Shown: positions 1-12,249 of the stretch, one piece after another
Layout: the number at the start of each line of letters is the position of its first letter
How positions within the stretch are numbered: position 1 is the stretch's first letter
IMG/VR virus record: IMGVR_UViG_2737471839_000006
Span: 1 to 12,249 of that record
Source: a virus
Taxonomy: Duplodnaviria; Heunggongvirae; Uroviricota; Caudoviricetes
Reading direction: 5' to 3' (one strand)
DNA length: 12,249 nt
Notes under the pieces: generated by a model
What the model saw: the letters and a program-made list of their open reading frames with translations, nothing else
The model's database searches: none
What the model was told of the DNA's origin: nothing
Program-made: the position numbers and the translations under genes

Positions 1-109
1 CACCACCCCGTCAGTAGCTGAACAGGAGGGACAGCTGATAGAAACAGAAGCCACTGGAGCACCTCAAAAACACCATCATACACTAAATCAGTAAGTTGGC
101 AGCATCACC
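1..109 (-). mobile_element. IS1 terminal segment, including the terminal inverted repeat; the element continues beyond the window start and includes the first codons of insA on the minus strand
   Basis: Positions 1..109 are the exact reverse complement of the IS1 left end as I recall it (GGTGATGCTGCCAACTTACTGATTTAGTGTATGATGG...GACGGGGTGGTG). The terminal repeat ends at 109 (..CAGCATCACC), where the sequence turns abruptly AT-rich. Recognised from memory, not searched. Confidence 0.85.
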
Positions 110-337
110 CGGGGAACTATAACAATGTTTCTAGCTTGGTGCTGTATGAATTAGTGAATTAGTAGGGAATATATCCACACATTGATTAACACAAAAATAT
201 TTCAGATATTAAATGTAACTCAAAGGATGAGTAATAATGGTTGTGTAGCGTATAACAGGATGCTGAGGTAGTATTAAACAATGAATAAATCTGATTGACA
301 AGCACCAGATAATACTGCGGGTCAATCATTAGACATG

Positions 338-372
338 AACGCCACTAGTTACTGAGAGTAACTAATGGCGTT
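338..372. repeat. Near-perfect 16-bp inverted repeat (AACGCCACTAGTTACT-gag-AGTAACTAATGGCGTT, 15/16), a possible 3' stem-loop or protein-binding site downstream of the HD gene
   Basis: Read directly; one C/A mismatch. It sits 43-77 bp downstream of the minus-strand stop at 415..417. A second AT-rich hairpin (GATGTTTT-ttt-AAAACATC, 387..405) lies between the stop and this palindrome. Confidence 0.4.
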
Positions 373-414
373 GTGTTTATAGTTAAGATGTTTTTTTAAA
401 ACATCAGGGGGGCT

Positions 415-1962
415 CTACTTGTCTTTTTTAATATGTTCAATCTCATCATTAAGACATTTATCTATTTTTTTTATTAACACATTAATTTCTTCGGTGTTTT
501 GGAGTTGAGTTGTCTTAGAAACAAAAACTCGAATAAAGAATTTAACATAGTGATAGGGTTGAAGTACATCGTTATACTTACATAAATCATTTATTGTATA
601 CTTGCCGCCTGTTTCTTTTTTTATTATTTTAGCTTGACTTGTATCGATATCTTTAAAGTTATCTTCAATCTGAAAATCAAGAACCCATTCATCTCCTTTT
701 AAATTATCCTCAATGATTTTGTTGATTTTCTTAGATATATTTTGTTTATATTCTTTGTATCTGTTGTCGGAAATGTTAACATTAGAAAACGTGTGTTTTT
801 TTTCATATATTTTTTTCCAAACATTTCTATCAACAATATCTTGAATTATAGCTTGAGAATTTTTATCTAATGTGTTTTTAAGAGTGTTTTCTAAAAACGT
901 TTTGTCTGGGTTTTCACGATAAAAGTGTTTGATGGACTCAATGAGAGTGTTTTTAGATTTTAAAGAGACAACATCATCAGTTTTTTTTCTAGAACACGCT
1001 TTGTTAAGCATCGCAGATAGTGCACGATTGGTCTTATGAAAATAAACTTGACTATAAAGCCCACTTCTTGCATTGGCAAATTCTAGTATTGAATCCATAC
1101 CACTTTCTTTATATGCCAGGTAAACACTATTTTCAACTTTCACAGGAATAAATGACATTAATAATCGTCCATAATCATAAATCCCATATTTAACGCCGGA
1201 GAAGTAGCTATCTCTAAGTAGGTAGTCCATTCTGTCCGCATCTATAGGTGAAGATGATATGATTGAACCTAATAAAGGATATACATTTACTCCCTCAATG
1301 TTATTTTTAAAATCATATCTTTTATCAACAATTTTTATAATGCTTTCTGGATTAATAGCCGCTATGTTTTCTTTATAGACATCGTCGTCATTTGATTTAT
1401 CTTGGGCTTCATTTTTTAATTCTTCAATAATTTCTTTAATAAAAATACATGATACTTGTTCGTGGGTTAACTTGTCATTATCACTTAAAGATATAATCTT
1501 ATCGTATTGTTTATTTCCTTCAGTTTTGCATTTTTCTTTGAAATCTTTTACGGATATTGCAAAACTATCGAATTGGTGGGCAAGTGGGCCATGCCCAACA
1601 TCGTGTAACAATGCTGCAATACGTAACTCCTGTATAAGACTTGAAGGCATTTTTTTTATATCTAAATATAGATCAATGCCCATATTTTTTCGGTCATAAA
1701 TTAATGCATTCAAATTTATATTTTTCAAAATCTCATACGATAAATGCATTACACCGACAGAGTGTTCAAAGCGAGAGTGCATTGCAGAAGGAAATACTTT
1801 ATATAGAAACGTGTTCTGCCTGATATCTCGTAGTCGTTGGAATAAAGGATGGTCAATTATCTTTTTTTCTAGCTTAGTTATTCGAATCACTCCATGTATG
1901 GGATCTAAAAACTTCCCCAGAAGTAAGTCTTCAAAGTTCTCAAGTTTGTTTTTGTTTGTCAT
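415..1962 (-). CDS. SAMHD1-like HD-domain dNTP triphosphohydrolase (515 aa)
   Basis: Uninterrupted 515-aa ORF with ATG start at 1962..1960 preceded by AAGGAAAG. HD-superfamily motifs are all present: DPIHG (aa 21-24), RFEHS (aa 64-68), LLHDVGHGPLAH (aa 118-129), THEQ (aa 166-169), DADRMDYLLRD (aa 241-251). Spacing and flanking residues parallel human SAMHD1 as I recall it. Very AT-rich with K/N/I-rich codon usage, unlike the flanking prophage genes. Confidence 0.85.
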   Translation of the reverse strand: MTNKNKLENFEDLLLGKFLDPIHGVIRITKLEKKIIDHPLFQRLRDIRQNTFLYKVFPSAMHSRFEHSVGVMHLSYEILKNINLNALIYDRKNMGIDLYLDIKKMPSSLIQELRIAALLHDVGHGPLAHQFDSFAISVKDFKEKCKTEGNKQYDKIISLSDNDKLTHEQVSCIFIKEIIEELKNEAQDKSNDDDVYKENIAAINPESIIKIVDKRYDFKNNIEGVNVYPLLGSIISSSPIDADRMDYLLRDSYFSGVKYGIYDYGRLLMSFIPVKVENSVYLAYKESGMDSILEFANARSGLYSQVYFHKTNRALSAMLNKACSRKKTDDVVSLKSKNTLIESIKHFYRENPDKTFLENTLKNTLDKNSQAIIQDIVDRNVWKKIYEKKHTFSNVNISDNRYKEYKQNISKKINKIIEDNLKGDEWVLDFQIEDNFKDIDTSQAKIIKKETGGKYTINDLCKYNDVLQPYHYVKFFIRVFVSKTTQLQNTEEINVLIKKIDKCLNDEIEHIKKDK

Positions 1963-2023
1963 GAGGCTTTCCTTTTGCTGTAGTTATAATACGAAATTTA
2001 AATAGTAATGATGTTTATAGTTT

Positions 2024-2052
2024 CAATGTGTTATCTAATGGTTAACACATTG
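2024..2052. promoter_or_regulatory. Perfect 10-bp inverted repeat CAATGTGTTA-N9-TAACACATTG, a putative operator or promoter element 62-90 bp upstream of the HD gene start
   Basis: Read directly. On the minus strand the right arm ends in TTGAAA, which could serve as a -35 element. The 10-mer TTCAATGTGT (2022..2031) recurs at 3873..3882 upstream of the second island gene. Confidence 0.45.
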
Positions 2053-2321
2053 TGATGTAGCATATCAATATGGATTCATATGTTCAATTGGTCTGTGGAG
2101 TTTAGTTATGAATAAGATTGATTCTGGTAATACTTTGTAGTTTAAGCTAGAGGCGGGATTCGTGATGTTCAAATCAGTATGTAATGGAGGTTGTGCATTA
2201 GTACTTGCTGCTGGAAATTAAAAATAAAGTTGCAAGTAATCGACGTTTTCCGAGAGGAGGATGTAAGCATCGCTGACCAAAAAGTATCAACGATGCCTGT
2301 TTTGTTTTAACTACAAATTAA

Positions 2322-3824
2322 TTAAATTGCATCTGCAAACTCTGTGATTTTTCGCTCAAGTATGATTGATGAGTTGCTGTTGTCGATTTTTTTATTTTCA
2401 TGATTACGAATAGCCAATGACTCATTAAAGTCTTTTGCGACTGCTGTCTCAATAAATTCAATTTCTGAATCAGAGTGTTTTTTAACAGCTTCTTTGATCT
2501 CATCCAGAGTAACATAGAAAAACTCTTTTCTACGATTTACAAGATTGACTCTCTTTTTATCGAAGACATCATGTAGTTTTTTTTCTAATGATGGAGCGTC
2601 CTCCGAATAAATCATGGCATGCACATCAAAAATAAAAGGAACAGATGCATCACCAAGCTCATTTACACGGTCTTGTGGATCAAGACGTCGTGTCATGCCT
2701 ATTTTATAAACATTCTCCCCAAAAGAACCTATGTTCGAAATAATATAAACATGACCTTGTTTGGTTTGTTGTGCCATGGATAATGCTCTTTGATGCTTTG
2801 ATTCAGCCTGCGACAAACTCTGTTCTAGTTCGGCAATGCGATTTTCGAGGCGCTGCTTCATGTCACCAGTAACTTTTTCCATTTCCTTTCTTGCAGCTTC
2901 AATTGCTTTTTTATAACGGCGCTCTTCTGCCTCTGCGTCTTGCATGGCCTTTTCTATTTCTCGTTGTGCACGCTCCTCCTCTCTCATTTGTGCCCTTATT
3001 TCTGCCTGTTCTTCTTTTTCTTTCTGTTTTTGCTCACGATATTCATGGGTAAGCCACAACTCCTCAAGTTTTTTATTAAGGTATTTAGTATTTATATATA
3101 TGTGATTTTGCTCGTTTAGTTTATTTATGGCCTCAAATGCCTTTGTGATGCGTTCTTCCATTTTAGTGATATTTTTCCACGTGCAATTACTAATTGCAGC
3201 ATCACATTCATTATTAAATGCTCTAGTAGTTAGCCTAATATTTCTGTCTGTCATTTTTTTACCCTCTGCTCGAGAGCCTTCAACAGTCCATTGGGTTGTG
3301 CAATATACTGCACCAGAGTGGGTTTTATCCCGCAGCATTAATTTCTGTTCATCCCTGATGGATTTTATTTTGTTTTTAAATTGCTCTGAATCTTCAAAAT
3401 TAAAATGAGGTTCGTAAAATCCTAGTTCGGCTAGTTCAACATCTTCTGAATAAATAGAAATTTGCTTTACTAGCTTATCATATATTTCTTTCTTCTCTTT
3501 ATAAGTTCTTCTTAGTTCTTGGATTTGTTTATTGATACCATCCATTTTTTCAATGGTGTTTGTTAGTTCATTATTGGCATTTTCTTTTACTTTTTGGGAC
3601 TCTTCTTTTATAATGGAGCATTCTTGCTCTGTTTTCTCAATAAGCTTCTTACATTCCTCTTCCACATTAAAATAATCTGCAAAGCGAGATTTGTATTCTT
3701 CATTTTTTTGATTGCTATCACTTAATTCTAATTGTATTTTTTTGATGCGTTTGATTGCAGCTATATATAGAACAAGAACAACCAATAAAAATATGATTGC
3801 AAGTAATAGTGGAGTTTGAGTCAT
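2322..3824 (-). CDS. Membrane-anchored coiled-coil protein with C-terminal T5orf172/MUG113-type (GIY-YIG superfamily) domain; middle region resembles DUF4041 (500 aa)
   Basis: 500-aa ORF with ATG at 3824..3822 and GGAA upstream. N-terminal hydrophobic helix (LLLAIIFLLVVLVLYIAAI, aa 5-24). Long E/K/Q/R-rich heptad-like segments (aa ~30-130 and ~250-350). C-terminal block GHVYIISNIGSFGENVYKIGMTRR...PFIFDVHAMIYSEDAPSLEKKLHDVFDKKRV...RKEFFYV (aa ~357-440; nt ~2505..2756) matches the T5orf172 signature as I recall it. AT-rich like the HD gene. Confidence 0.85.
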   Translation of the reverse strand: MTQTPLLLAIIFLLVVLVLYIAAIKRIKKIQLELSDSNQKNEEYKSRFADYFNVEEECKKLIEKTEQECSIIKEESQKVKENANNELTNTIEKMDGINKQIQELRRTYKEKKEIYDKLVKQISIYSEDVELAELGFYEPHFNFEDSEQFKNKIKSIRDEQKLMLRDKTHSGAVYCTTQWTVEGSRAEGKKMTDRNIRLTTRAFNNECDAAISNCTWKNITKMEERITKAFEAINKLNEQNHIYINTKYLNKKLEELWLTHEYREQKQKEKEEQAEIRAQMREEERAQREIEKAMQDAEAEERRYKKAIEAARKEMEKVTGDMKQRLENRIAELEQSLSQAESKHQRALSMAQQTKQGHVYIISNIGSFGENVYKIGMTRRLDPQDRVNELGDASVPFIFDVHAMIYSEDAPSLEKKLHDVFDKKRVNLVNRRKEFFYVTLDEIKEAVKKHSDSEIEFIETAVAKDFNESLAIRNHENKKIDNSNSSIILERKITEFADAI

Positions 3825-3872
3825 TCGTGCTATTCCTTACGGACAATTTAAGACGTTTTGTATTAAATCCTG

Positions 3873-3882
3873 TTCAATGTGT
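3873..3882. promoter_or_regulatory. Second copy of the 10-mer TTCAATGTGT, 49-58 bp upstream of the start of the 500-aa gene
   Basis: Read directly; identical to 2022..2031. On the minus strand it reads ACACATTGAAC, again ending in a -35-like TTGAAC. Confidence 0.35.
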
Positions 3883-4152
3883 ATGCGGGTGATTGCTACC
3901 GCTTACAATCTTCATAATTATCAGTTAGATAGACTCGCTAGTAAATAATTTCATTTTTTGCAATATTCTTATTGAATATTTCAATTTATGAAATGAACTC
4001 TTTATCCTTTCAAGGCGAAAGGTTTCTTCTTCGGAAATATTTGCTCTCGTGTGACGTATAAAGGCCTTTGATTTTTAAAAAACAGTAGGGAATAATATAG
4101 TTACTGTCGGCCTGAACACCCGGCGGTGGGGTTGCGCTAAACGGGGACGTTT

Positions 4153-4254
4153 ATGCGCACATACAATCTAAACTCTCTTCTCCCTTCACAGATGCAGAAA
4201 TGCACCTGCGATTTTTTGCATCCAACGTTTGACCTCTGCGGAGGTGAAGCGTGA
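4153..4254 (+). CDS. ylcH: Small 33-aa ORF, YlcH-like, overlapping the ybcN start by 4 nt
   Basis: ATG at 4153 translates to [33 protein letters not shown] and stops within GTGA, which also supplies the ybcN start. Size and position match my recollection of ylcH in DLP12. Too short for the ORF track; hand-translated. Confidence 0.4.
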
Positions 4255-4706
4255 ACCTACCACAAGATGGCATCAAATTACATCGCGGCAACTTCACCGC
4301 TATCGGCCAGCAGATCCAGCCTTATCTGGAGGACGGAAAATGCTTTCGCATGGTGCTTAAACCGTGGCGTGAGAAACGCAGTCTTTCCCAGAATGCACTC
4401 AGCCACATGTGGTACAGCGAAATCAGTGAATACCTTATCAGCAGGGGGAAATCGTTCGCTACCGCAGCATGGGTAAAAGAAGCTCTCAAACACACATACC
4501 TCGGTTATGAAACCAAAGAACTGGTTGATGTCGTAACCGGTGAAATCACCACTATCCAGTCGTTACGCCATACCTCCGATCTTGATGCCGGAGAGATGTA
4601 TGTCTTCCTGTGTAAGGTTGAAGCCTGGGCGATGAATATTGGCTGCCACCTGACTATTCCGCAGAGCTGCGAGTTCCAGCTGCTGCGCGACAAGCAGGAG
4701 GCGTAA
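4251..4706 (+). CDS. ybcN: NinB-family protein (YbcN-like), 151 aa, GTG start
   Basis: ORF track 4251..4706. GGAGGTG sits 5 nt upstream of the GTG. The sequence [19 protein letters not shown]...[18 protein letters not shown] matches the DLP12 YbcN/NinB family as I recall it (lambda NinB has the analogous RSLDQN block). Confidence 0.9.
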
Positions 4707-4876
4707 TGGCTACACCGCTTATTCGTGTCATGAACGGACACATCTACAGAGTACCAAATCGTCGTAAGCGTAAACCTGAGCTGAAGCCATCCGAAATACC
4801 AACACTGCTCGGATATACCGCCAGCCTGGTTGATAAAAAATGGTTGCGACTGGCAGCAAGGAGGAATCATGGCTGA
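4706..4876 (+). CDS. ninE: NinE-family small protein (56 aa)
   Basis: ATG overlaps the ybcN stop (TAATG). Hand translation gives [56 protein letters not shown]. Below the ORF-track size cutoff. Confidence 0.7.
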   Translation: MATPLIRVMNGHIYRVPNRRKRKPELKPSEIPTLLGYTASLVDKKWLRLAARRNHG

Positions 4877-5159
4877 TTTGAGAAAAGCAGCGCGTGGTCG
4901 GGAATGCCAGGTAAGAATCCCTGGCGTATGTAATGGCAACCCTGAAACGTCTGTACTGGCACATATCCGGCTGACTGGATTGTGCGGCACCGGTACCAAA
5001 CCGCCAGACCTGATTGCCACCATTGCATGTTCTGCCTGCCACGACGAAATCGACCGCCGCACACATTTTGTCGATGCCGCATATGCAAAAGAATGCGCGC
5101 TGGAAGGTATGGCGAGAACGCAGGTTATCTGGCTGAAAGAGGGGGTAATCAAGGCGTGA
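4869..5159 (+). CDS. ybcO: YbcO-like putative nuclease (Cys-rich, 96 aa from ATG at 4869)
   Basis: Track ORF 4830..5159 begins at a TTG; the ATG at 4869 is preceded by AGGAGGAA and gives 96 aa ([23 protein letters not shown]...), the size I recall for DLP12 YbcO. Conserved Cys/His residues (C..C..C..H) are present. Confidence 0.75.
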
Positions 5160-5518
5160 ATACCTACAACATCACATTACCCTGGCCGCCTAGCAATAAC
5201 CGCTACTACCGGCATAATCGCGGGCGCACACACATCAGCGCAGAAGGGCAGGCATACCGCGATAACGTCGCCCGAATCATTAAAAACGCAATGCTGGATA
5301 TCGGCCTGGCTATTCCTGTAAAAATCCGCATTGAGTGCCACATGCCGGATCGCCGTCGCCGTGACCTGGATAATCTGCAAAAAGCCGCTTTTGACGCACT
5401 CACCAAAGCAGGTTTCTGGCTGGATGATGTTCAGGTCGTTGATTACCGTGTTGTGAAGATGCCCGTTACCAAAGGTGGGAAGCTGGAGTTGACCATCACC
5501 GAACTGGGGAATGAATGA
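5156..5518 (+). CDS. rusA: RusA Holliday-junction resolvase (120 aa, GTG start overlapping the ybcO stop)
   Basis: Track ORF 4982..5518 is a 5'-extended frame; GTG at 5156 (within GCGTGAAT) gives [23 protein letters not shown]...[25 protein letters not shown], which I recognise as RusA. Confidence 0.9.
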
Positions 5519-5655
5519 TGTTTGAGTCTTATATGGCAGAACGTCTTCGCCACCGCTGGATGCGCCTGCGCTTATATCGTTTCCCCGGTTCTGTTTTGAC
5601 CGATTACCGAATACTGAAGAGTTACGCCAAAACCCTGACAGGAGCAGGAGTATGA
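5515..5655 (+). CDS. ylcG: YlcG-like small protein (46 aa)
   Basis: ATGATG start overlaps the rusA stop (AATGAATGATG). Hand translation gives [46 protein letters not shown]. Below the track cutoff. Confidence 0.55.
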
Positions 5656-5740
5656 AGTCAGAGATAACAACCAACTAATACTGTTTTGTTGATTTTTGCT
5701 TGTAATTGGCGTTCTGGTCTGAGTTTTGTGGAGTAAGTTG

Positions 5741-6124
5741 ATGCGTGATATTCAGATGGTTCTTGAGCGTTGGGGAGCGTGGGCGGCTAATAATCATGAA
5801 GATGTGACCTGGTCGTCCATTGCCGCCGGTTTTAAGGGATTAATTACTTCAAAAGTAAAATCTCGCCCGCAATGTTGTGACGATGACGCGATGATCATTT
5901 GCGGGTGCATGGCCCGTCTGAAAAAGAACAACAGCGATTTGCACGATTTATTAGTAGATTATTATGTAGTCGGTATGACATTCATGTCACTGGCAGGTAA
6001 GCATTGCTGCTCTGATGGTTATATCGGGAAAAGGTTACAGAAGGCTGAGGGCATAATTGAAGGGATGTTAATGGCATTAGATATCCGGTTAGAGATGGAT
6101 ATCGTTGTTAATAACTCTAATTAA
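5741..6124 (+). CDS. quuD: Late-gene antiterminator Q (QuuD-like, 127 aa)
   Basis: Track ORF 5726..6124 starts at an upstream TTG; the ATG at 5741 gives 127 aa ([24 protein letters not shown]...) with Cys clusters ([18 protein letters not shown]) typical of Q-family antiterminators. Position after rusA/ylcG and before the lysis genes is as expected. Confidence 0.85.
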
Positions 6125-6157
6125 TATGCCAATTGTTTACTAAAAATTATTAAAAAT

Positions 6158-6175
6158 GGGGCGTTGAGACGCCCC
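6158..6175 (-). terminator. GC hairpin (GGGGCGT-tgag-ACGCCCC) followed on the minus strand by ATTTTTAATAATTTTT; candidate intrinsic terminator for minus-strand (nmpC) transcription
   Basis: Read directly. The T-rich tract is only on the minus-strand 3' side, 34 nt beyond the quuD stop. Confidence 0.4.
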
Positions 6176-6265
6176 CAAAAATAAAGGGTAATATATAACA
6201 GAAGGTTTATATAGTTAGAAGCAAGGTTGTGCTTCTAAAGGAAGTGGCTTGAGGGAGCCACTTAT

Positions 6266-6304
6266 ATGTTGGGGAGGCAACGCCTCCCGCAACATATCTT
6301 TTTC
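6266..6304 (+). terminator. tR'-like intrinsic terminator candidate (GGGAGGC-aac-GCCTCCC within an extended imperfect stem, then ATCTTTTTCG)
   Basis: Read directly. Lies about 140 nt downstream of quuD, where lambdoid phages place pR'/qut/tR'. Two further hairpins (6218..6237, 6244..6261) sit just upstream. Confidence 0.4.
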
Positions 6305-6313
6305 GTAATCAGA

Positions 6314-7411
6314 TTAGAACTGGTAAACCAGACCTACAGCAACGATGTCATCAGTGCTTACACCGAGTGCTTTAGTGAAGTCATTTTTGTCAAGCAGGTT
6401 GATTTTGTAATCAACGAAAGTAGACATATTTTTGTTGAAGTAATAGGTTGCACCTACATCAACATATTTGACTAAGTCCTGATCGCCCCATACTCCAAGA
6501 TCCTTACCTTTAGATTGCAGGTAAGCAACGGACGGACGCAGACCGAAATCGAACTGATATTGTGCAACAGCTTCGAAGTTTTGGGCTTTATTAGCAACGA
6601 AGTGATCAGCAAATACAGTCATATTCTGGGTTTCAGAATAGGTAGTGGCCAGGTAAATGTTGTTAGCATCATATTTCAGACCTGCGGCCCAAACTTCTGC
6701 ATTTTTACCGGAAGCAAATACTTCAGGAAGAACTTTCCCTGCATTAACTTGAGTGTCGGTACGATCAGATTTCGCATAAGTTGCACCGATACCGAATCCT
6801 TCGTATTCATAGGTAGCAGAGAAACCGAAGCCATCACCGTTACCTTCAGTGTAGTTATCGAAATCGCTACGATCGTTTTTGCCTTGGTACTGAGCAGCAA
6901 AGTTCAGACCATCAACCAGACCAAAGAAGTCGTTGTTACGATAGGTTGCAACACCAGTGGTGCGACCAGTCATGAACACATCTGTTTGGGTCCAGGTATC
7001 GCCACCGAATTCTGGCAGAACGTCAGTCCACGCACCGATGTCGTATGCTACACCGTAGTTACGGCCGTAATCGATTGAGCCGTAGTCACCGAATTTCAGG
7101 CCTGCAAATGCAAGACGGGTTTTGTCTTTGGAGGAACCTTGAGATTCAGCGCGGTTGCCTTTGAATTCATATTCCCACTGACCGAAACCAGTCAGTTGAT
7201 CGTTGATTTGGGTTTCACCTTTGAAGCCAAGACGGGCATAAGTAGTATCACCATCATCTGCATCATTAGAGGAGAAGTAGTGCTTAGCATTAACTTTCCC
7301 GTACAGATCCAGCTTGTTACTGTCTTTATTATAAATTTCAGCTGCCTGAGCAGACATCGCCATCAGTACTGATGCAGCTACAGCAGAAATTGCCACTGTT
7401 AATTTTTTCAT
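6314..7411 (-). CDS. nmpC: Outer-membrane general porin NmpC/OmpD-like, intact (365 aa with signal peptide)
   Basis: ORF track. N-terminal signal peptide [23 protein letters not shown] then AEIYNKD...; C-terminal ...AVGLVYQF, the typical porin terminal Phe. ATG is preceded by AAGGG. Recognised as the DLP12 porin gene, here without an IS interruption. Confidence 0.9.
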
Positions 7412-7840
7412 CGTGAGCCCTTTTTTTTGAACTATTATTAAAAAATGATGTCACTGCGCGATAAATATTCATCTAATCAATGTGATTATTTCAAGATGTA
7501 AGTTTTGGTTTCTCGTTTGATTTGTGAAGTAGATCTCTATTTTTATCTGAACTTTTTTCTATCGAATCCTATTCATAGCTCTTGGCTGAATAAAAATAAA
7601 TCTATTAGCCAATTTATATTAACGACTGTTATTTATAAGTGCTCTATAATTTGAAGGTTCAATTTAAATCGGCTAAAAATAACACTGGAAATTATTTGTT
7701 GGTTATTTGTTGAGGTTTTCTTATGTATTTGTGGTGGTGTTTTGAACACTCGGTAGCATTCTCGCAAATATCATTTAGTGGTTTACGTACGTAAAAAATT
7801 GGTTATGCTGTTAAGAGTGGTTACTTCGTCACACAGCTTA

Positions 7841-7873
7841 AACCCGCCGTCGAGCGGGTTTTTCCATTTTTTG
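7841..7873 (+). terminator. Intrinsic terminator candidate about 110 bp upstream of the holin gene (AACCCGC-cgtcga-GCGGGTT then TTTCCATTTTTTG)
   Basis: Read directly; the T-tract is on the plus strand only. Confidence 0.55.
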
Positions 7874-7984
7874 AGTCTCGATATTAGCTGATAACCCAAT
7901 ACCTGAGTTATTCACTGACTCCGAGTCTGTTACGTTTCGTAGTATTCCCTCAATTTACACCCGCTTTGTCTGCGAGGTGGGGTT

Positions 7985-8200
7985 ATGAAATCCATGGATA
8001 AGTTAACAACGGGTGTCGCCTATGGCACCTCAGCAGGTAGTGCCGGGTACTGGTTTTTACAGCTGCTAGATAAAGTCACGCCCTCACAGTGGGCGGCAAT
8101 TGGAGTGCTGGGTAGCCTGGTATTTGGCCTGCTGACGTACCTGACAAACCTTTATTTCAAGATTAAAGAAGACAAGCGTAAGGCTGCACGGGGAGAGTAA
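7985..8200 (+). CDS. essD: Class II pinholin, phage 21 S21-like (71 aa) with dual-start motif MKSM
   Basis: ORF track. [71 protein letters not shown] is near-identical to S21 as I recall it; two TM segments; Met1/Met4 dual start. Confidence 0.9.
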
Positions 8201-8204
8201 TTCA

Positions 8205-8549
8205 ATGACTCAAAACTATGAACTGATTGTGAAAGGGATCCGCAATTTTGAGAATAAAGTTACGGTAACTTTAGCGTTACGGGACAAAAAACGCTTTGAC
8301 GGTGAAATTTTTGACCTGGACATCTCGCTGGACCGTGTTGAAGGTGCCGCGCTGGAGTTTTATGAGGCAGCAGCCAGAAGGAGCATCAGACAGGTCTTCC
8401 TGGATGTTGCTGCCGGGTTATGTGAAGGGGATGAGCTGTCGCCGGAAAAGCGCCCCATAATTTTAGAGGCGCAGAATGTGTGGATAACCTACAAAGGAAA
8501 GCTACCGGGAAGAATTACTGGTTCTCTGAAGACTCCGCCGAAATGGTAA
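8205..8549 (+). CDS. Hypothetical protein (114 aa) inserted between holin and endolysin; no family recognised
   Basis: ORF track. ATG at 8205 lies 5 nt after the holin stop, with GGAGAG 7 nt upstream, so it is positioned for co-expression with late genes. No motif I can assign. Confidence 0.6.
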   Translation: MTQNYELIVKGIRNFENKVTVTLALRDKKRFDGEIFDLDISLDRVEGAALEFYEAAARRSIRQVFLDVAAGLCEGDELSPEKRPIILEAQNVWITYKGKLPGRITGSLKTPPKW

Positions 8550-8787
8550 TTTCACCAGCATATTTTTCTTCCAGTAATACCGCCAGCCACTTGAAAGAAT
8601 TTTGTTGTTGCTGGGACCATTTGGGGTTGAGTGATTCAAGCTGGAGCGATGCCAGTGTTGGTTGCATTTGTTCCTTGGGAATTGAGAATGCCAGATATGA
8701 AAATGCGACAGTAAGGGCATTTACATCATCCCGAAGCCTGGAAATGCAGTCGAGCAACTCCTGTAGAGAAATGGTGCTATTGTCCAT
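8515..8787 (-). CDS. Hypothetical protein (~90 aa), convergent with and overlapping the 3' end of the 8205..8549 gene
   Basis: Track ORF 8515..8793 starts at a TTG; the in-frame ATG at 8787 is preceded by GAGAGGA at 6-nt spacing on the minus strand. Ordinary Leu/Gln-rich composition; no recognisable family. Confidence 0.5.
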   Translation of the reverse strand: MDNSTISLQELLDCISRLRDDVNALTVAFSYLAFSIPKEQMQPTLASLQLESLNPKWSQQQQNSFKWLAVLLEEKYAGEITISAESSENQ

Positions 8788-8892
8788 AAACAATCCTCTC
8801 TATTGTATTTAACTATTCCTTGCCTGATTCAACAGGCCGGGACAGATAAACATATCCAGGGTTCAGAAACCGATAAATCCTGATAAATATCC

Positions 8893-9426
8893 ATGAACGC
8901 AAAAATCAGATACGGCCTGTCGGCTGCCGTTCTGGCACTGATTGCCGTCGGTGCGCCTGCGCCTGATATTCTCGACCAGTTTCTGGATGAAAAAGAAGGT
9001 AACCACACAACGGCATACCGCGATGGTTCCGGCATCTGGACCATCTGTCGGGGTGCCACGGTGGTGGATGGAAAACCCGTTTTTCCCGGTATGAAACTGT
9101 CGAAGGAAAAATGCGACCAGGTTAACGCCATTGAACGGGATAAGGCGCTGGCATGGGTGGAGCGCAATATTAAAGTGCCACTGACCGAACCACAGAAAGC
9201 GGGTATCGCGTCATTTTGTCCCTATAACATTGGCCCCGGTAAGTGTTTCCCGTCGACGTTTTATAAGCGGCTGAATGCCGGTGATCGTAAAGGTGCATGC
9301 GAGGCGATTCGCTGGTGGATAAAAGATGGTGGGCGCGATTGCCGCATACGTTCAAATAACTGCTATGGACAGGTTATTCGTCGTGACCAGGAAAGCGCAT
9401 TAGCCTGTTGGGGGATAGATCAGTGA
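8893..9426 (+). CDS. SAR endolysin (T4-lysozyme-like muramidase, 177 aa)
   Basis: ORF track. N-terminal weakly hydrophobic Gly/Ala-rich segment ([17 protein letters not shown]), typical of a signal-anchor-release domain. The following E-x8-D-x5-T triad ([16 protein letters not shown]) has T4-lysozyme spacing. Confidence 0.9.
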
Positions 9427-9881
9427 GCAGAGTCGCCGCGATTATTTATGCTCTGGTTATCTGCATCATCGTCTGCCTGTCATGGGCTGTTAATCATTAC
9501 CGTGATAACGCAATCGCCTACAAAGAGCAGCGCGATAACAAGGCCAGTGAACTGGAGAAGGCGAACGCCACCATCGCTGACATGCGGAAGCGTCAACGTG
9601 ATGTAGCAGAACTCGACGCAAGATACACAAAGGAGCTTGCTGATGCTAACGCGACTATCGAAAGTCTCCGTGCTGATGTTTCTGCTGGGCGTAAGCGCCT
9701 GCAAGTCGCCGCCACCTGTGCAAAGTCAACGACCGGAGCCAGCGGCATGGGCGATGGAGAAAGCCCAGGACTTACAGCAGATGCTGAACTCAATTATTAC
9801 CGTCTCCGAAGTGGAATCGACAAGATAACCGCGCAGGTTAACTACCTGCAGGAATACATCAGGACGCAATGCCTGAAATAA
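9423..9881 (+). CDS. Rz: i-spanin Rz (GTG start overlapping the endolysin stop)
   Basis: Track ORF 9408..9881; GTG at 9423 (within CAGTGAGC) gives (M)[33 protein letters not shown]..., closely resembling lambda Rz: N-terminal TM anchor, coiled-coil periplasmic domain. Confidence 0.85.
9637..9828 (+). CDS. Rz1: o-spanin Rz1 lipoprotein, embedded in the +1 frame of Rz
   Basis: Track ORF 9637..9828. Lipobox-like VSAC followed by a proline-rich stretch ([13 protein letters not shown]), entirely inside Rz in another frame as in lambda. Confidence 0.75.
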
Positions 9882-9912
9882 TTTTTTTGCAAATCACAAA
9901 GTCCATTTAATG

Positions 9913-9936
9913 AGCCTCGCGATGCGGGGCTTTTTG
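9913..9936 (+). terminator. Intrinsic terminator after the lysis cassette (AGCCTCGC-gat-GCGGGGCT with one G-U pair, then TTTTT)
   Basis: Read directly, about 30 nt downstream of the Rz stop. Confidence 0.5.
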
Positions 9937-9942
9937 CAATAA

Positions 9943-9967
9943 ATGCGTACCGCAACGCATGTTTTTT
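9943..9967 (+). terminator. Second tandem intrinsic terminator (ATGCGT-accgca-ACGCAT then GTTTTTT)
   Basis: Read directly, immediately after the first. Confidence 0.45.
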
Positions 9968-10082
9968 ACACCGAACCTGCCCCTTTGGAATGGGCCTTTG
10001 AGGATACCAGTTAGTGCTGGCGAGCCTCGGTGGGCTGGTTTCCTGTGCGGCAAAGGTTCATTTCAAAGAGTAGGTACACGCT

Positions 10083-10580
10083 ATGAAATCATTAACCCTC
10101 TTCAATCAACCAATTCGTATCGGTGAAGATGGCATGATCTGCCTCACTGACATGTGGAAAGCTAGTGGTAAAAGTGAATCTGAATCGCCGTACCACTATC
10201 TGCGAAACAAGCAGACCAAAGAGTTCTTAGCCGAGCTGGAGAAAAACCACGAATCTGTGGTTTTTACTGAGCGCGGTGTACACGGTGGAACATATGGCGG
10301 GAAGTTTGTTGCTTACGATTATGCGGCTTGGTTAAACCCCGGGTTCAAGTACGCGGCCTATAAAGTCCTCGATGACTACTTCACCGGAGAACTTCAGCAT
10401 CGCAACAGCTTAAGTGCGCAGCTCAACATGAAATGTCATGAGTTTGACCAGAAGAAAGACATGGCGAGCTTCTGCGGACAAGGGCTGGCAGCATGGCGCT
10501 ATACGAAGCCAGTGTTGGTCGCTGAGATTAACTCCCTGGCTAACCAGCTGCAGATTACGATCCCCGGGCTTCCGGGATGA
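10083..10580 (+). CDS. KilA-N domain protein (165 aa)
   Basis: ORF track. The N-terminal region (..FTERGVHGGTYGGKFVAYDYAAWLNPGFKYAAYKVLDDYF) has the aromatic/AxWLxPxF pattern I associate with KilA-N DNA-binding domains. Confidence 0.75.
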   Translation: MKSLTLFNQPIRIGEDGMICLTDMWKASGKSESESPYHYLRNKQTKEFLAELEKNHESVVFTERGVHGGTYGGKFVAYDYAAWLNPGFKYAAYKVLDDYFTGELQHRNSLSAQLNMKCHEFDQKKDMASFCGQGLAAWRYTKPVLVAEINSLANQLQITIPGLPG

Positions 10581-10852
10581 GTGATCGTGTCATTGAATGC
10601 GCCTCCAGAGCGGGGCGCGACTTCTCAGAGTTCATGAAAGGCGAGAAGGGCATGATGGAAGCATTGGCCTCGGTGGATGAGTTTGGCGAGCAGCTGCGCC
10701 TCAACGGCTGTGTCAATCATCACTTTGTTAGCTACATGATGCGGAACTCGATCATGCAGGCATTCATGGACATGGCAAAAGCCGAGAGGAAAGAAGAGCG
10801 CCGGCATAAGCGAGCGGAAGCAAAAGCAAAAGCAAAAGCAAAAGTGAAGTAG
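10577..10852 (+). CDS. Hypothetical protein (91 aa) with basic C-terminal (AK)n tail; start overlaps the KilA-N stop
   Basis: ORF track; ATGA overlap at 10577..10580 suggests translational coupling. Confidence 0.6.
   Translation: MSDRVIECASRAGRDFSEFMKGEKGMMEALASVDEFGEQLRLNGCVNHHFVSYMMRNSIMQAFMDMAKAERKEERRHKRAEAKAKAKAKVK
10820..10843 (+). repeat. (GCAAAA)x4 perfect tandem hexanucleotide repeat encoding AKAKAKAK
   Basis: Read directly, within the 3' end of the 10577..10852 ORF. Confidence 0.8.
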
Positions 10853-11334
10853 CCATTACAAAGCCCATTTACGGGTGGGCTTGATAATGAAACCGGAATT
10901 TATTCTGGGCCACCAGTTAACGGCAGTACCACGAAACAACCCAAGCCAGTAAGTGGGGAAATAACACTGGCAGCCACTGAAAGATGAAGCTCCTGCCTTA
11001 AGGCAAAAAAGATTCTTTGTGGTGGCGGACTGATGGAAAGACATCGGTTATTGCAGAGGCCATTCAATGAGTGGTCTCGACAATGGCTTATACCCTACAC
11101 GGGATAACTTAACTGATATCCCTTTTAACGGATAAAGGTATTCAAGCCTGACACATCATGCGCTGTATCGTCGCCGTATTCCCGCATTAACCATGACCGT
11201 AGCCCGACGGGGAATTCCTTCTGCGTGAGTGTGCGGGAATAATCAAAAACGATGCACACCGGGGTTACCGGGTACACATATTTCATCATGCCAGCGAGTC
11301 CGGTTCTGGCGCGGAAGAAACCGGACGTTATGAT

Positions 11335-11760
11335 TTAGTGCGGAAATATTTGTGTAGTGTTCTGAATGTTCTCAGTAAATAGTAATGAATTATCAAAGGT
11401 ATAGTAATACCTTTTGTTTTCGTGGATATTTGTAATCCATCTGAAAACCCCTGCTGTAGCAAGATTTTTCCTGTATTCGTAAAATGATAACTCTCCTGAT
11501 TTGAATCCTTTTAAGGTGGCTTCTATAAGGCATTTATTTTTTGAAAATCTTACATTTACAACCTTACCCTGTCCTTTTATTAAAACCGTATTATCGTTTT
11601 CAAGAACAAGATGAATATTCTCTGTGGCTAAATAGTAAATGTAATGTGAGACATTGTGACGTTTTAGTTCAGAATAAAACCAGTGATAGTTTAAATTATT
11701 TCGCACTTTATCGAATATTTGTTTAAAAATGGCAACCTGAGCCATTGTAGTACCTTCCAT
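11335..11760 (-). CDS. ybcV: YbcV-like protein (DUF1398 family); ATG at 11745 would give 136 aa
   Basis: ORF track; AT-rich. [43 protein letters not shown]... recalled as the DLP12 YbcV family. A GTCCGGTT..AACCGGAC hairpin lies just downstream (~11293..11321). Confidence 0.75.
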
Positions 11761-11802
11761 GTGATATGATGGGGCGTAGTCTGCACGATTATCTAAATTG
11801 CT

Positions 11803-12036
11803 TCAATCTGGTCTGACCTGTTTTCTGAGCAATTCAGTAATGTCACTCTTTTCTTTGTTTGCTTCAGGCGAAACTCTTTTTTCTGAGCACAGTCTCCGGC
11901 GGCAGGCTTCAATGACCCAGGCTGAGAAATTCCCAGACCCTTTTTGCTCAAGAGCGATGTTAATTTGTTCAATCATTTGGTTAGGAAAGCGGATGTTGCG
12001 GGTTGTTGTTCTGCGGGTTCTGTTCTTCGTTGACAT
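11803..12036 (-). CDS. Small basic protein, YlcI/DUF3950-like (77 aa as called; start uncertain)
   Basis: ORF track. MSTKNRTRRTTTRNIRFPNQMIEQINIALEQKGSGNFSAWVIEACRRRL... has an Arg-rich N-terminus and a ribbon-helix-helix-like core, and sits immediately upstream of cos as in DLP12/lambda. Confidence 0.6.
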   Translation of the reverse strand: MSTKNRTRRTTTRNIRFPNQMIEQINIALEQKGSGNFSAWVIEACRRRLCSEKRVSPEANKEKSDITELLRKQVRPD

Positions 12037-12149
12037 GAGGTTGTCCCGTATTCAGTGTCGCTGATTTGTATTGTCTGAAGTTGTTTTTACGTTAAGTTGA
12101 TGCAGATCAATTAATACGATACCTGCGTCATAATTGATTATTTGACGTG

Positions 12150-12249
12150 GTTTGATGGCCTCCACGCACGTTGTGATATGTAGATGATAATCATTATCAC
12201 TTTACGGGTCCTTTCCGGTTATCCGACAGGTTACGGGGCGGCGACCTCG
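12150..12249 (+). other. Lambda-type cos site: cosQ-like region and cosN, with the 12-nt cohesive-end sequence GGGCGGCGACCT at 12236..12247
   Basis: 12065..12235 matches the lambda right-end sequence as I recall it (...GACGTGGTTTGATGGCCTCCACGCACGTTGTGATATGTAGATGATAATCATTATCACTTTACGGGTCCTTTCCGG[T/G]ATCCGACAGGTTACG), followed by GGGCGGCGACCTCG. Confidence 0.8.

Follow-up and report, generated by a model that had tools for sequence, protein, structure and literature searches.

The first 4 kb of the virus record IMGVR_UViG_2737471839_000006 (Caudoviricetes, from IMG/VR) contain an AT-rich island with two large genes, located in a lambdoid prophage of the DLP12 site. We analyzed positions 1 to 12,249 of this record as one stretch, here called the window, and all the coordinates are positions of this 12,249-nt window, with position 1 as its first letter. 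One of the two genes is almost certainly SNIPE (PD-λ-1), an already characterized membrane nuclease, and the other codes for a protein with an HD domain (the HD protein) that can be assigned with good confidence, by sequence and predicted structure, to the SAMHD1 clade of deoxynucleoside triphosphate (dNTP) triphosphohydrolases. Comparison with other genomes makes us confident that the island combines two independent cassettes, each of a single gene, which join at 2259/2260. The complete reading, in which two independent cassettes are stacked and code for SNIPE and for an anti-phage dNTPase of the SAMHD1 type, we hold with moderate confidence, while the anti-phage role of the HD protein taken by itself appears slightly favoured. 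The features of the island and its borders are the following:

1-109, no strand assigned: terminal 109 bp of an IS1 element, ending in ...GGCAGCATCACC at 109, the inverted-repeat end
110-414, minus strand: 3' flank of the HD cassette, with a hairpin at 340-370 and cross-genus conservation to about 241
415-1962, minus strand: HD gene, 515 amino acids, predicted dNTP triphosphohydrolase of the SAMHD1 clade
1963-2259, minus strand: upstream region of the HD cassette, with promoter-like element, leader and ribosome-binding site; conserved across genera from 1963 to about 2210
2260-2321, minus strand: 3' flank of the SNIPE module; a stem-loop of 13 bp comes right behind the stop codon, at about 2265-2298
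2322-3824, minus strand: SNIPE (PD-λ-1) gene, 500 amino acids, with transmembrane helix, coiled coil, DUF4041 and GIY-YIG/T5orf172 domain
3825-4023, minus strand: upstream region of SNIPE, rich in A and T and with a promoter-like site, where the foreign DNA ends at the right
4024-4706, plus strand: lambdoid backbone, comprising a region similar to orf33 of phage 82, a small open reading frame (ORF) and ybcN (NinB-like, 4251-4706; Pfam NinB), in agreement with the annotation of L001, L002 and L065

The GC content is 0.326 over positions 110-4100, against 0.461 in the rest of the window and 0.49 in the nin genes (4251-6124). In windows of 400 bp the values are mostly between 0.28 and 0.35 across the island, with 0.40-0.42 at 2600-3200 (within the SNIPE gene), and about 0.5 is reached from roughly position 4000. 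The two long ORFs are separated by a spacer of 359 bp, there are 426 bp upstream of the SNIPE gene, and both genes are antisense to the early-right operon of the prophage. The neighbours at the right, all in the plus strand, are ybcN, ninE, ybcO, rusA, ylcG and quuD, and the site, between ren and ninB/ybcN, is a known position for cargo genes (morons) in lambdoid phages. All this agrees with an earlier note on this DNA, made from its letters alone, which had estimated by eye about 30% versus 50% GC and had described two large minus-strand genes antisense to the early genes, each with its own upstream region, in a prophage moron position bordered at the left by an IS1 end at 109. Bases 1-109 match elements with IS1/IS1A transposase annotation in 9678 Escherichia coli records, and an IS1-free locus (L001, strain 2 HS-C), otherwise 99.4% identical, aligns to the window from base 110. 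The IS1 end is 305 bp downstream of the stop codon of the HD gene, outside the core that is conserved across genera. It encroaches on the E. coli HD module by 29 bp, the left edge of this module falling at the virtual position 81 according to the coordinates of L066, an intact prophage with both genes. At the other side, generic lambdoid phages match the window only from 4024, many of them along 4024-4141, and the stretch 3825-4023 is inherited together with SNIPE in prophages that carry only this gene. Lambdoid backbone resumes at about 4024, and the description of the island as a single block has to be corrected, given the module boundary at 2259/2260.

The identification of the gene at 2322-3824 is straightforward. 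Its product matched the PADLOC model PD-Lambda-1 (PDLC03976) with an E value of 5e-198 along positions 1-484 of the 491 in the model, and PHROG 1847 with 9e-196. Pfam domains DUF4041 (1.2e-19, residues 198-252), MUG113 (7e-19) and T5orf172 (7e-17), the last two at residues 357-449, were found together with an N-terminal transmembrane helix at residues ~6-24 (LLLAIIFLLVVLVLYIAAI) that has a mean Kyte-Doolittle hydropathy of 3.37. The protein is 98.8% identical in amino acids to the product of a gene of phage PhiR26_1 annotated as "PD-lambda-1", and RefSeq names its orthologues "SNIPE associated domain-containing protein". The putative membrane-anchored nuclease of the earlier note is thus well founded, with its transmembrane helix and GIY-YIG domain. 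That note could match the pair to no named system, but the nuclease does have a name, as PADLOC identifies it as PD-λ-1/SNIPE. PD-λ-1 was first obtained in the screen of Vassallo et al. (2022) and later renamed SNIPE. It was described as an inner-membrane protein of 500 amino acids with a periplasmic N-terminus that associates with ManYZ and with the phage tape-measure protein via its N-terminal region and DUF4041, and whose GIY-YIG domain, with the catalytic E414, cuts the DNA of λ and other siphoviruses during injection (Saxton et al., Nature 2026, PMC13190303). The single gene with its native promoter is sufficient for defence, and it restricts siphoviruses but neither myoviruses nor podoviruses (PMC13190303). 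The protein of the window has the same length and architecture, and the nine wild-type residues named in that work are all found at the same positions (E223, N250, L253, W257, E264, K305, I308, T319 and E414). In PhiR26_1 the gene is also located at the lambdoid ren-ybcN position, and apart from a divergence of about 1% nothing substantive distinguishes it from the one studied here. What sets the locus of the window apart is the HD gene at the 3' side of SNIPE, a neighbour that the published SNIPE neither has nor needs. The stem-loop at the 3' end of the gene has a folding energy of -22.7 kcal/mol (z = -3.0), and the junction with the HD module is only 5 nt past this hairpin. A promoter-like site at 3945-3917 (TTTACT-17-GATAAT) came from a generic promoter scan, the counts of which did not exceed those of shuffled sequence.

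The two genes behave as separate units in the genomes compared. Of 5426 complete E. coli genomes, 21 have the HD gene and 131 have SNIPE, so that 110 of the 131 have SNIPE alone, and a sensitive blastn search detected no further or divergent HD copies in E. coli. Homology to the prophages that carry only SNIPE (L002 and L003, the latter being PhiR26_1) starts exactly at 2260, and when L066 is compared with L002, 168 bp appear replaced by a block of 2179 bp that corresponds to (81)-2259 of the window. Outside E. coli, no relative of SNIPE was found within 10 kb of the HD relatives at any of 54 genome loci, and none of 53 distant SNIPE homologues in viral contigs had an HD neighbour. Also among viral contigs, 16 of the 22 with an HD gene have no SNIPE and 73 of the 79 SNIPE loci have no HD gene, both being found together only in six loci of the E. 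coli type. Furthermore, SNIPE is broken by IS1 or split at four of the 21 E. coli loci, where the HD gene remains intact. Natural disruption of SNIPE was seen in TB354, Evo1, CP137705, OZ392478 and 23AR0806, by IS1 in three cases, IS5 in one and a split ORF in the other.

The earlier note had taken both genes as a paired anti-phage or exclusion module. A cooperative system of this kind could work if the nuclease cuts the incoming DNA and the dNTPase prevents it from being repaired or replicated, or if one protein regulates the other. Two observations count against independence and in favour of such cooperation. The HD gene adjoins SNIPE, directly downstream and in the same strand, in 21/21 of the E. 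coli genomes that have it, which might reflect a functional interaction specific to this lineage, and there is no canonical terminator with a T-run between the genes, so that co-transcription by read-through is possible. Nevertheless, SNIPE works alone from its native promoter and is found alone in most of the E. coli genomes that have it, each cassette has its own conserved flanks at either side of 2260, the HD gene persists where its neighbour is disrupted, and at one locus described below the HD allele has been exchanged (90% nucleotide identity) next to a SNIPE that is 99.3% identical. The co-occurrence counts and the module boundary at 2260 lead us therefore to reject the two-gene system, which is very unlikely; the two genes occur together in a single E. 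coli locus lineage only (21 complete genomes plus six viral contigs). Their adjacency would be explained by the arrival of both at one hotspot and not by any need for each other. Of the module proposed in the earlier note there remain a published defence gene, SNIPE, and a candidate one, the HD gene, and what has to be given up is the pair itself, the genes being routinely unlinked.

According to its conserved flanks, the HD gene forms a mobile unit of its own, a cassette some 2 kb long with a cross-genus core at approximately 241-2210, of which the window keeps 110-2259. Homology by blastn in the non-coding parts, with 76-80% identity, was found in Serratia, Enterobacter, Klebsiella sp., Proteus and two metagenomic contigs, and reaches up to ~250 bp upstream of the gene and 110-175 bp past the stop codon. 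The cassette has a GC content of 0.29-0.32, versus 0.45-0.64 in the host flanks. The counts of a generic scan for promoters and terminators were not above those of shuffled sequence, and conservation across genera was used instead. In this way a consensus TTGAAy, 17 nt, TGnTATGCT could be derived from 11 upstream regions (E. coli, Serratia, Enterobacter, Klebsiella, Proteus and metagenomes). The promoter-like element of the window, in the minus strand, consists of TTGAAC (2087-2082), a 17-nt spacer and TGaTATGCT (2067-2059), and is followed by a leader of about 90 nt, a conserved ribosome-binding site (AAGGAAA) and the ATG at 1962-1960. Some 45 nt after the stop codon, the hairpin at 340-370 has a 13-bp stem with two compensatory pairs across genera (RNAalifold) and no T-run after it, and it is likely the 3' end or a stabilizer of the HD transcript. 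An Rfam search of the window gave no match to known RNA elements.

The gene seems to be under selection in E. coli. Its ORF is intact in 21/21 genomes, and the ratio of nonsynonymous to synonymous substitution rates (dN/dS) has an overall value of 0.27 between its two E. coli alleles, with 0.02-0.08 for the catalytic core, which indicates purifying selection. The second allele belongs to one E. coli lineage (L065). The 15% difference in protein sequence with the window version is confined to two surface blocks within the gene, at 700-1000 and 1300-1500 of the window (residues ~135-225 and 325-425 of the HD protein), while ~100% identity is kept in the catalytic N-terminal part, in the flanks and in SNIPE. 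Along the gene, the synonymous divergence (dS) between alleles goes from 0.09 to 0.56, a range that suggests recombination within the gene.

The Pfam models recognized in the HD protein only the generic HD domain (8e-7), and it matches along its full length PHROG 35128, a family with no function attributed. However, direct comparison by phmmer aligned it to human SAMHD1 at 4e-26 (residues 19-430), and a profile of the HD family improved the match to 4e-31 and extended it into the C-terminal lobe. It aligns as well to the Aquifex protein 2hek and to EF1143 of Enterococcus faecalis (2o6i), the values within the SAMHD1 clade ranging from 4e-26 to 5e-30. The AlphaFold2 model (pLDDT 86, pTM 0.88) retrieved by Foldseek only SAMHD1 chains among the top 50 PDB matches, one of them in a Cullin4 complex entry, with E values of ~1e-18 and TM-scores of 0.56-0.71. 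The PDB entry 9MR6 is a fungal SAMHD1. No transmembrane segments were predicted in the HD protein.

The putative active site can be followed residue by residue. The metal ligands H67, H120, D121 and D243 correspond to H167, H206, D207 and D311 of SAMHD1 and are invariant in 26/26 homologues, and the catalytic R64, H124, H129, D132 and H167, equivalent to R164, H210, H215, D218 and H233, are invariant or nearly so in the same set. The equivalence of H167/E168 with H233/E234 rests on the shared THEQxS motif, as phmmer misaligns this stretch, which bears an insertion. The residues of allosteric site 1 are kept (D37, Q42 and R45 for D137, Q142 and R145), with D37 changed to N or G in some homologues. 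Those of allosteric site 2 are mostly kept as well, with V56, F57, D263, R266, K285, H309 and K310 in the positions of V156, F157, D330, R333, R352, H376 and K377, and differences at K354 (S287), N119 (L19) and N358 (S, by alignment offset). Human SAMHD1, EF1143 and 2hek share with the HD protein the H..HD..D metal site, the equivalents of H210, H215 and H233, and the residues of the guanine-specific allosteric site 1. Unlike SAMHD1, the HD protein lacks the SAM domain, has ~20-30 additional residues inserted between the HD and THEQ motifs, and is coded in a prophage-borne AT-rich cassette. The dNTP hydrolase that the earlier note had suspected is consistent with this match, by sequence and predicted structure, from which we infer the dNTPase activity.

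Depletion of dNTPs by HD-domain dGTPases is an established anti-phage strategy (Tal et al. 2022; Yamaguchi et al. 2025 preprint), and the HD protein resembles the defensive dGTPases of Tal et al. (2022), for example Sp-dGTPase, in being a single-gene member of the HD superfamily found in mobile and defence contexts and expected to deplete dNTPs. However, they belong to a different clade, and Tal et al. (2022) reported that theirs could not be aligned directly to SAMHD1. The PADLOC dGTPase model (PDLC02374) hits the HD protein at 9e-4 and only at residues 59-153, and TIGR01353 scores 23.4 bits versus a cutoff of 152. With the family models failing, we rejected membership in the defensive dGTPases. 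Clover is composed of the dGTPase CloA, which is Dgt-like and octameric, and the nucleotidyltransferase CloB (Yamaguchi et al. 2025 preprint). Both Clover and the HD cassette would have an HD dNTPase as effector, the toxicity of which needs restraint, and control by nucleotides through allostery is plausible for the HD protein too. However, CloA needs its nucleotidyltransferase, whereas the HD protein is SAMHD1-like and no CloB-like partner is found in its cassette, and it was rejected also as a member of Clover.

Actually, besides the HD gene the segment 110-2259 contains only three short ORFs (60-75 amino acids), antisense and within or overlapping it, and no partner recurs across the HD loci. 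ORFs of ~150-180 amino acids located downstream of the gene in several species were considered as a hidden partner and discarded, as they are mutually non-homologous, with the exception of one pair, and the window has none of them. The pair corresponds to Enterobacter (L062, 9969-10424) and Klebsiella sp. Ap-873 (L076, 9811-10344), which share a convergent ORF, 34% identical, just downstream of the HD gene that is not present in E. coli or in the other HD contexts. A GIY-YIG gene as recurrent neighbour was also dismissed, since among 98 HD loci it appeared in one element only (L167, L081 and L082). In this element, a LEM-3-like GIY-YIG ORF (L167, 8528-9292) is directly upstream of an HD homologue with 75% identity, at a prophage end beside umuDC, and is truncated in L081 (5501-5882) and L082.

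The contexts of the cassette in other genomes are varied. In P2-like prophages of Yersinia enterocolitica and Y. ruckeri it appears as a moron at the gpV/gpS site, antisense to the late genes, and in a metagenomic contig it is located at a prophage end beside umuDC and AbiGi. In Proteus mirabilis (L058, 1100-10000) it is part of an island with CBASS (CD-NTase and Cap15), YaaC, mSLOG/DUF4326, DUF488 and DuOB genes; fragments of an isocitrate/isopropylmalate dehydrogenase gene are scattered among the genes of this island. The HD gene adjoins HigBA and orphan genes of the type VI secretion system in Enterobacter, and an S-type pyocin in Klebsiella sp. These contexts suggest accessory cargo that would be expressed in lysogens. 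Klebsiella phage ST11-VIM1phi8.3 (MK416019; L078, 1-4900) was discarded as a case of carriage by a phage, the HD gene being in the host flank outside the integrase. The sequence deposited as this phage genome includes host chromosome (LysR, SDR, HD and DJ-1 genes), and the context is that of the K. pneumoniae chromosome.

Several of the data weigh against a defensive role and have to be set against those contexts. No defence neighbours are found in Serratia and in P0017, and the PADLOC defence models give nothing for the HD protein beyond the marginal dGTPase match already mentioned. We found no defence role for this clade in DefensePredictor and its supplements, the domain-centric work in NAR 2026 and the P2/P4 hotspot paper, a coverage of the literature that is incomplete. 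HD homologues of ~45% identity in K. pneumoniae and Aeromonas have fixed chromosomal neighbourhoods, as housekeeping genes do; therefore the wider HD family is not uniformly associated with defence, and the fold alone is no proof of it. The protein could accordingly be a housekeeping or prophage-serving dNTPase that sets dNTP levels or the mutation rate in the lysogen, or damps the replication of its own prophage, with no role in exclusion. Enzymes of the SAMHD1 clade such as EF1143 and the Aquifex 2hek exist in many bacteria and have no known defence role, and distant homologues of the dGTPases may be housekeeping too (Tal et al. 2022). On the other hand, the E. coli HD clade is rare (0.4% of the genomes) and strongly AT-biased, and the cassette occupies prophage sites of at least three types and is also found close to CBASS, AbiGi and toxin-antitoxin genes, as is typical of defence cargo, all of which makes the housekeeping explanation unlikely.

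Other two explanations deserve far less credit. The HD superfamily is rich in phosphohydrolases of signalling nucleotides and the gene is phage-borne, so that the protein might serve the prophage in counter-defence by hydrolyzing cyclic or linear immune nucleotides or (p)ppGpp-like molecules. But the match with SAMHD1 covers the whole core and the equivalents of H210, H215 and H233 are kept together with the allosteric sites, and the antisense orientation of the gene relative to the lytic operons points to expression in the lysogen rather than in lytic growth; we see very little probability in this option. The probability is similarly slight that the gene is a decaying passenger with no function in a defective prophage scarred by IS1. 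Indeed, the prophage of this lineage is defective, in L001 the segment from bet to ren is deleted, and in the window IS1 adjoins the cassette. Still, the ORF is intact in all 21 E. coli genomes and evolves under the low dN/dS given above, IS1 lies outside the conserved cassette, and the same cassette is found in prophages that are apparently complete.

We favour then the reading of two horizontally acquired single-gene cassettes stacked in the ren-ninB site, each of which would be expressed from its own upstream region, in antisense to the early operon of the phage. SNIPE, in the cassette from 2260 to ~4023, would be located in the inner membrane and cut siphovirus DNA at injection, the mechanism published for an essentially identical protein. 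The HD protein would be a nucleotide-activated dNTP triphosphohydrolase, expressed in the lysogen from its own promoter, which could lower the dNTP pools raised by an infecting phage, so that phage DNA replication would stall. It might in this way add a line of defence that acts once the DNA has entered, plausibly against myoviruses and podoviruses; as SNIPE does not restrict these, a layer based on dNTP depletion would be complementary. Tentatively, the HD cassette may even represent a self-regulating, stand-alone antiviral dNTPase and the closest bacterial counterpart of human SAMHD1 yet in an immune context, because it aligns directly with SAMHD1, has equivalents of both allosteric sites and is a moron in lambdoid, P2-like and other prophages. 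In that case, and unlike in Clover, the nucleotides overproduced by the phage would activate the enzyme without a partner regulator, and its presence beside SNIPE would widen the protection of the lysogen from siphoviruses to phages that SNIPE cannot stop.

Other features of the window and of related phages are worth recording. An 89-bp stretch just 5' of ybcN (4133-4221) has two copies in PhiR26_1 (L003, 7874-7962 and 9808-9896), which flank an insertion of 1.85 kb with Rha and a hypothetical gene. This repeat looks like a recombination joint for the exchange of cargo at the ren-ninB hotspot. Farther to the right there are two additional AT-rich patches, one at 7400-7800 (GC 0.29), between an intact porin gene (6314-7411, minus strand) and the holin gene, and the other at 11335-11760, with a DUF1398 gene in the minus strand (GC ~0.33), and both are probably further morons. 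A DUF1327 gene (8205-8549, plus strand) is located between the holin and lysozyme genes, and its end is overlapped by an antisense ORF of 92 amino acids (8515-8793, minus strand) that gave no family match.

With the SNIPE half already known, the island is no new two-gene system. The new candidate is the HD cassette, one gene and its conserved promoter-like element within some 2 kb, which appears to move between prophage cargo sites across Enterobacterales. If the HD protein does restrict phages, immunity by nucleotide depletion would be broadened to include a second HD clade, which can be aligned directly to a human restriction factor, a link that Tal et al. could not establish for their dGTPases, and it would provide a model, free of any partner, for the restraint of a toxic dNTPase activity. 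The locus is also a clean natural example of the stacking of defence cargo and the swapping of alleles at the lambdoid ren-ninB hotspot.

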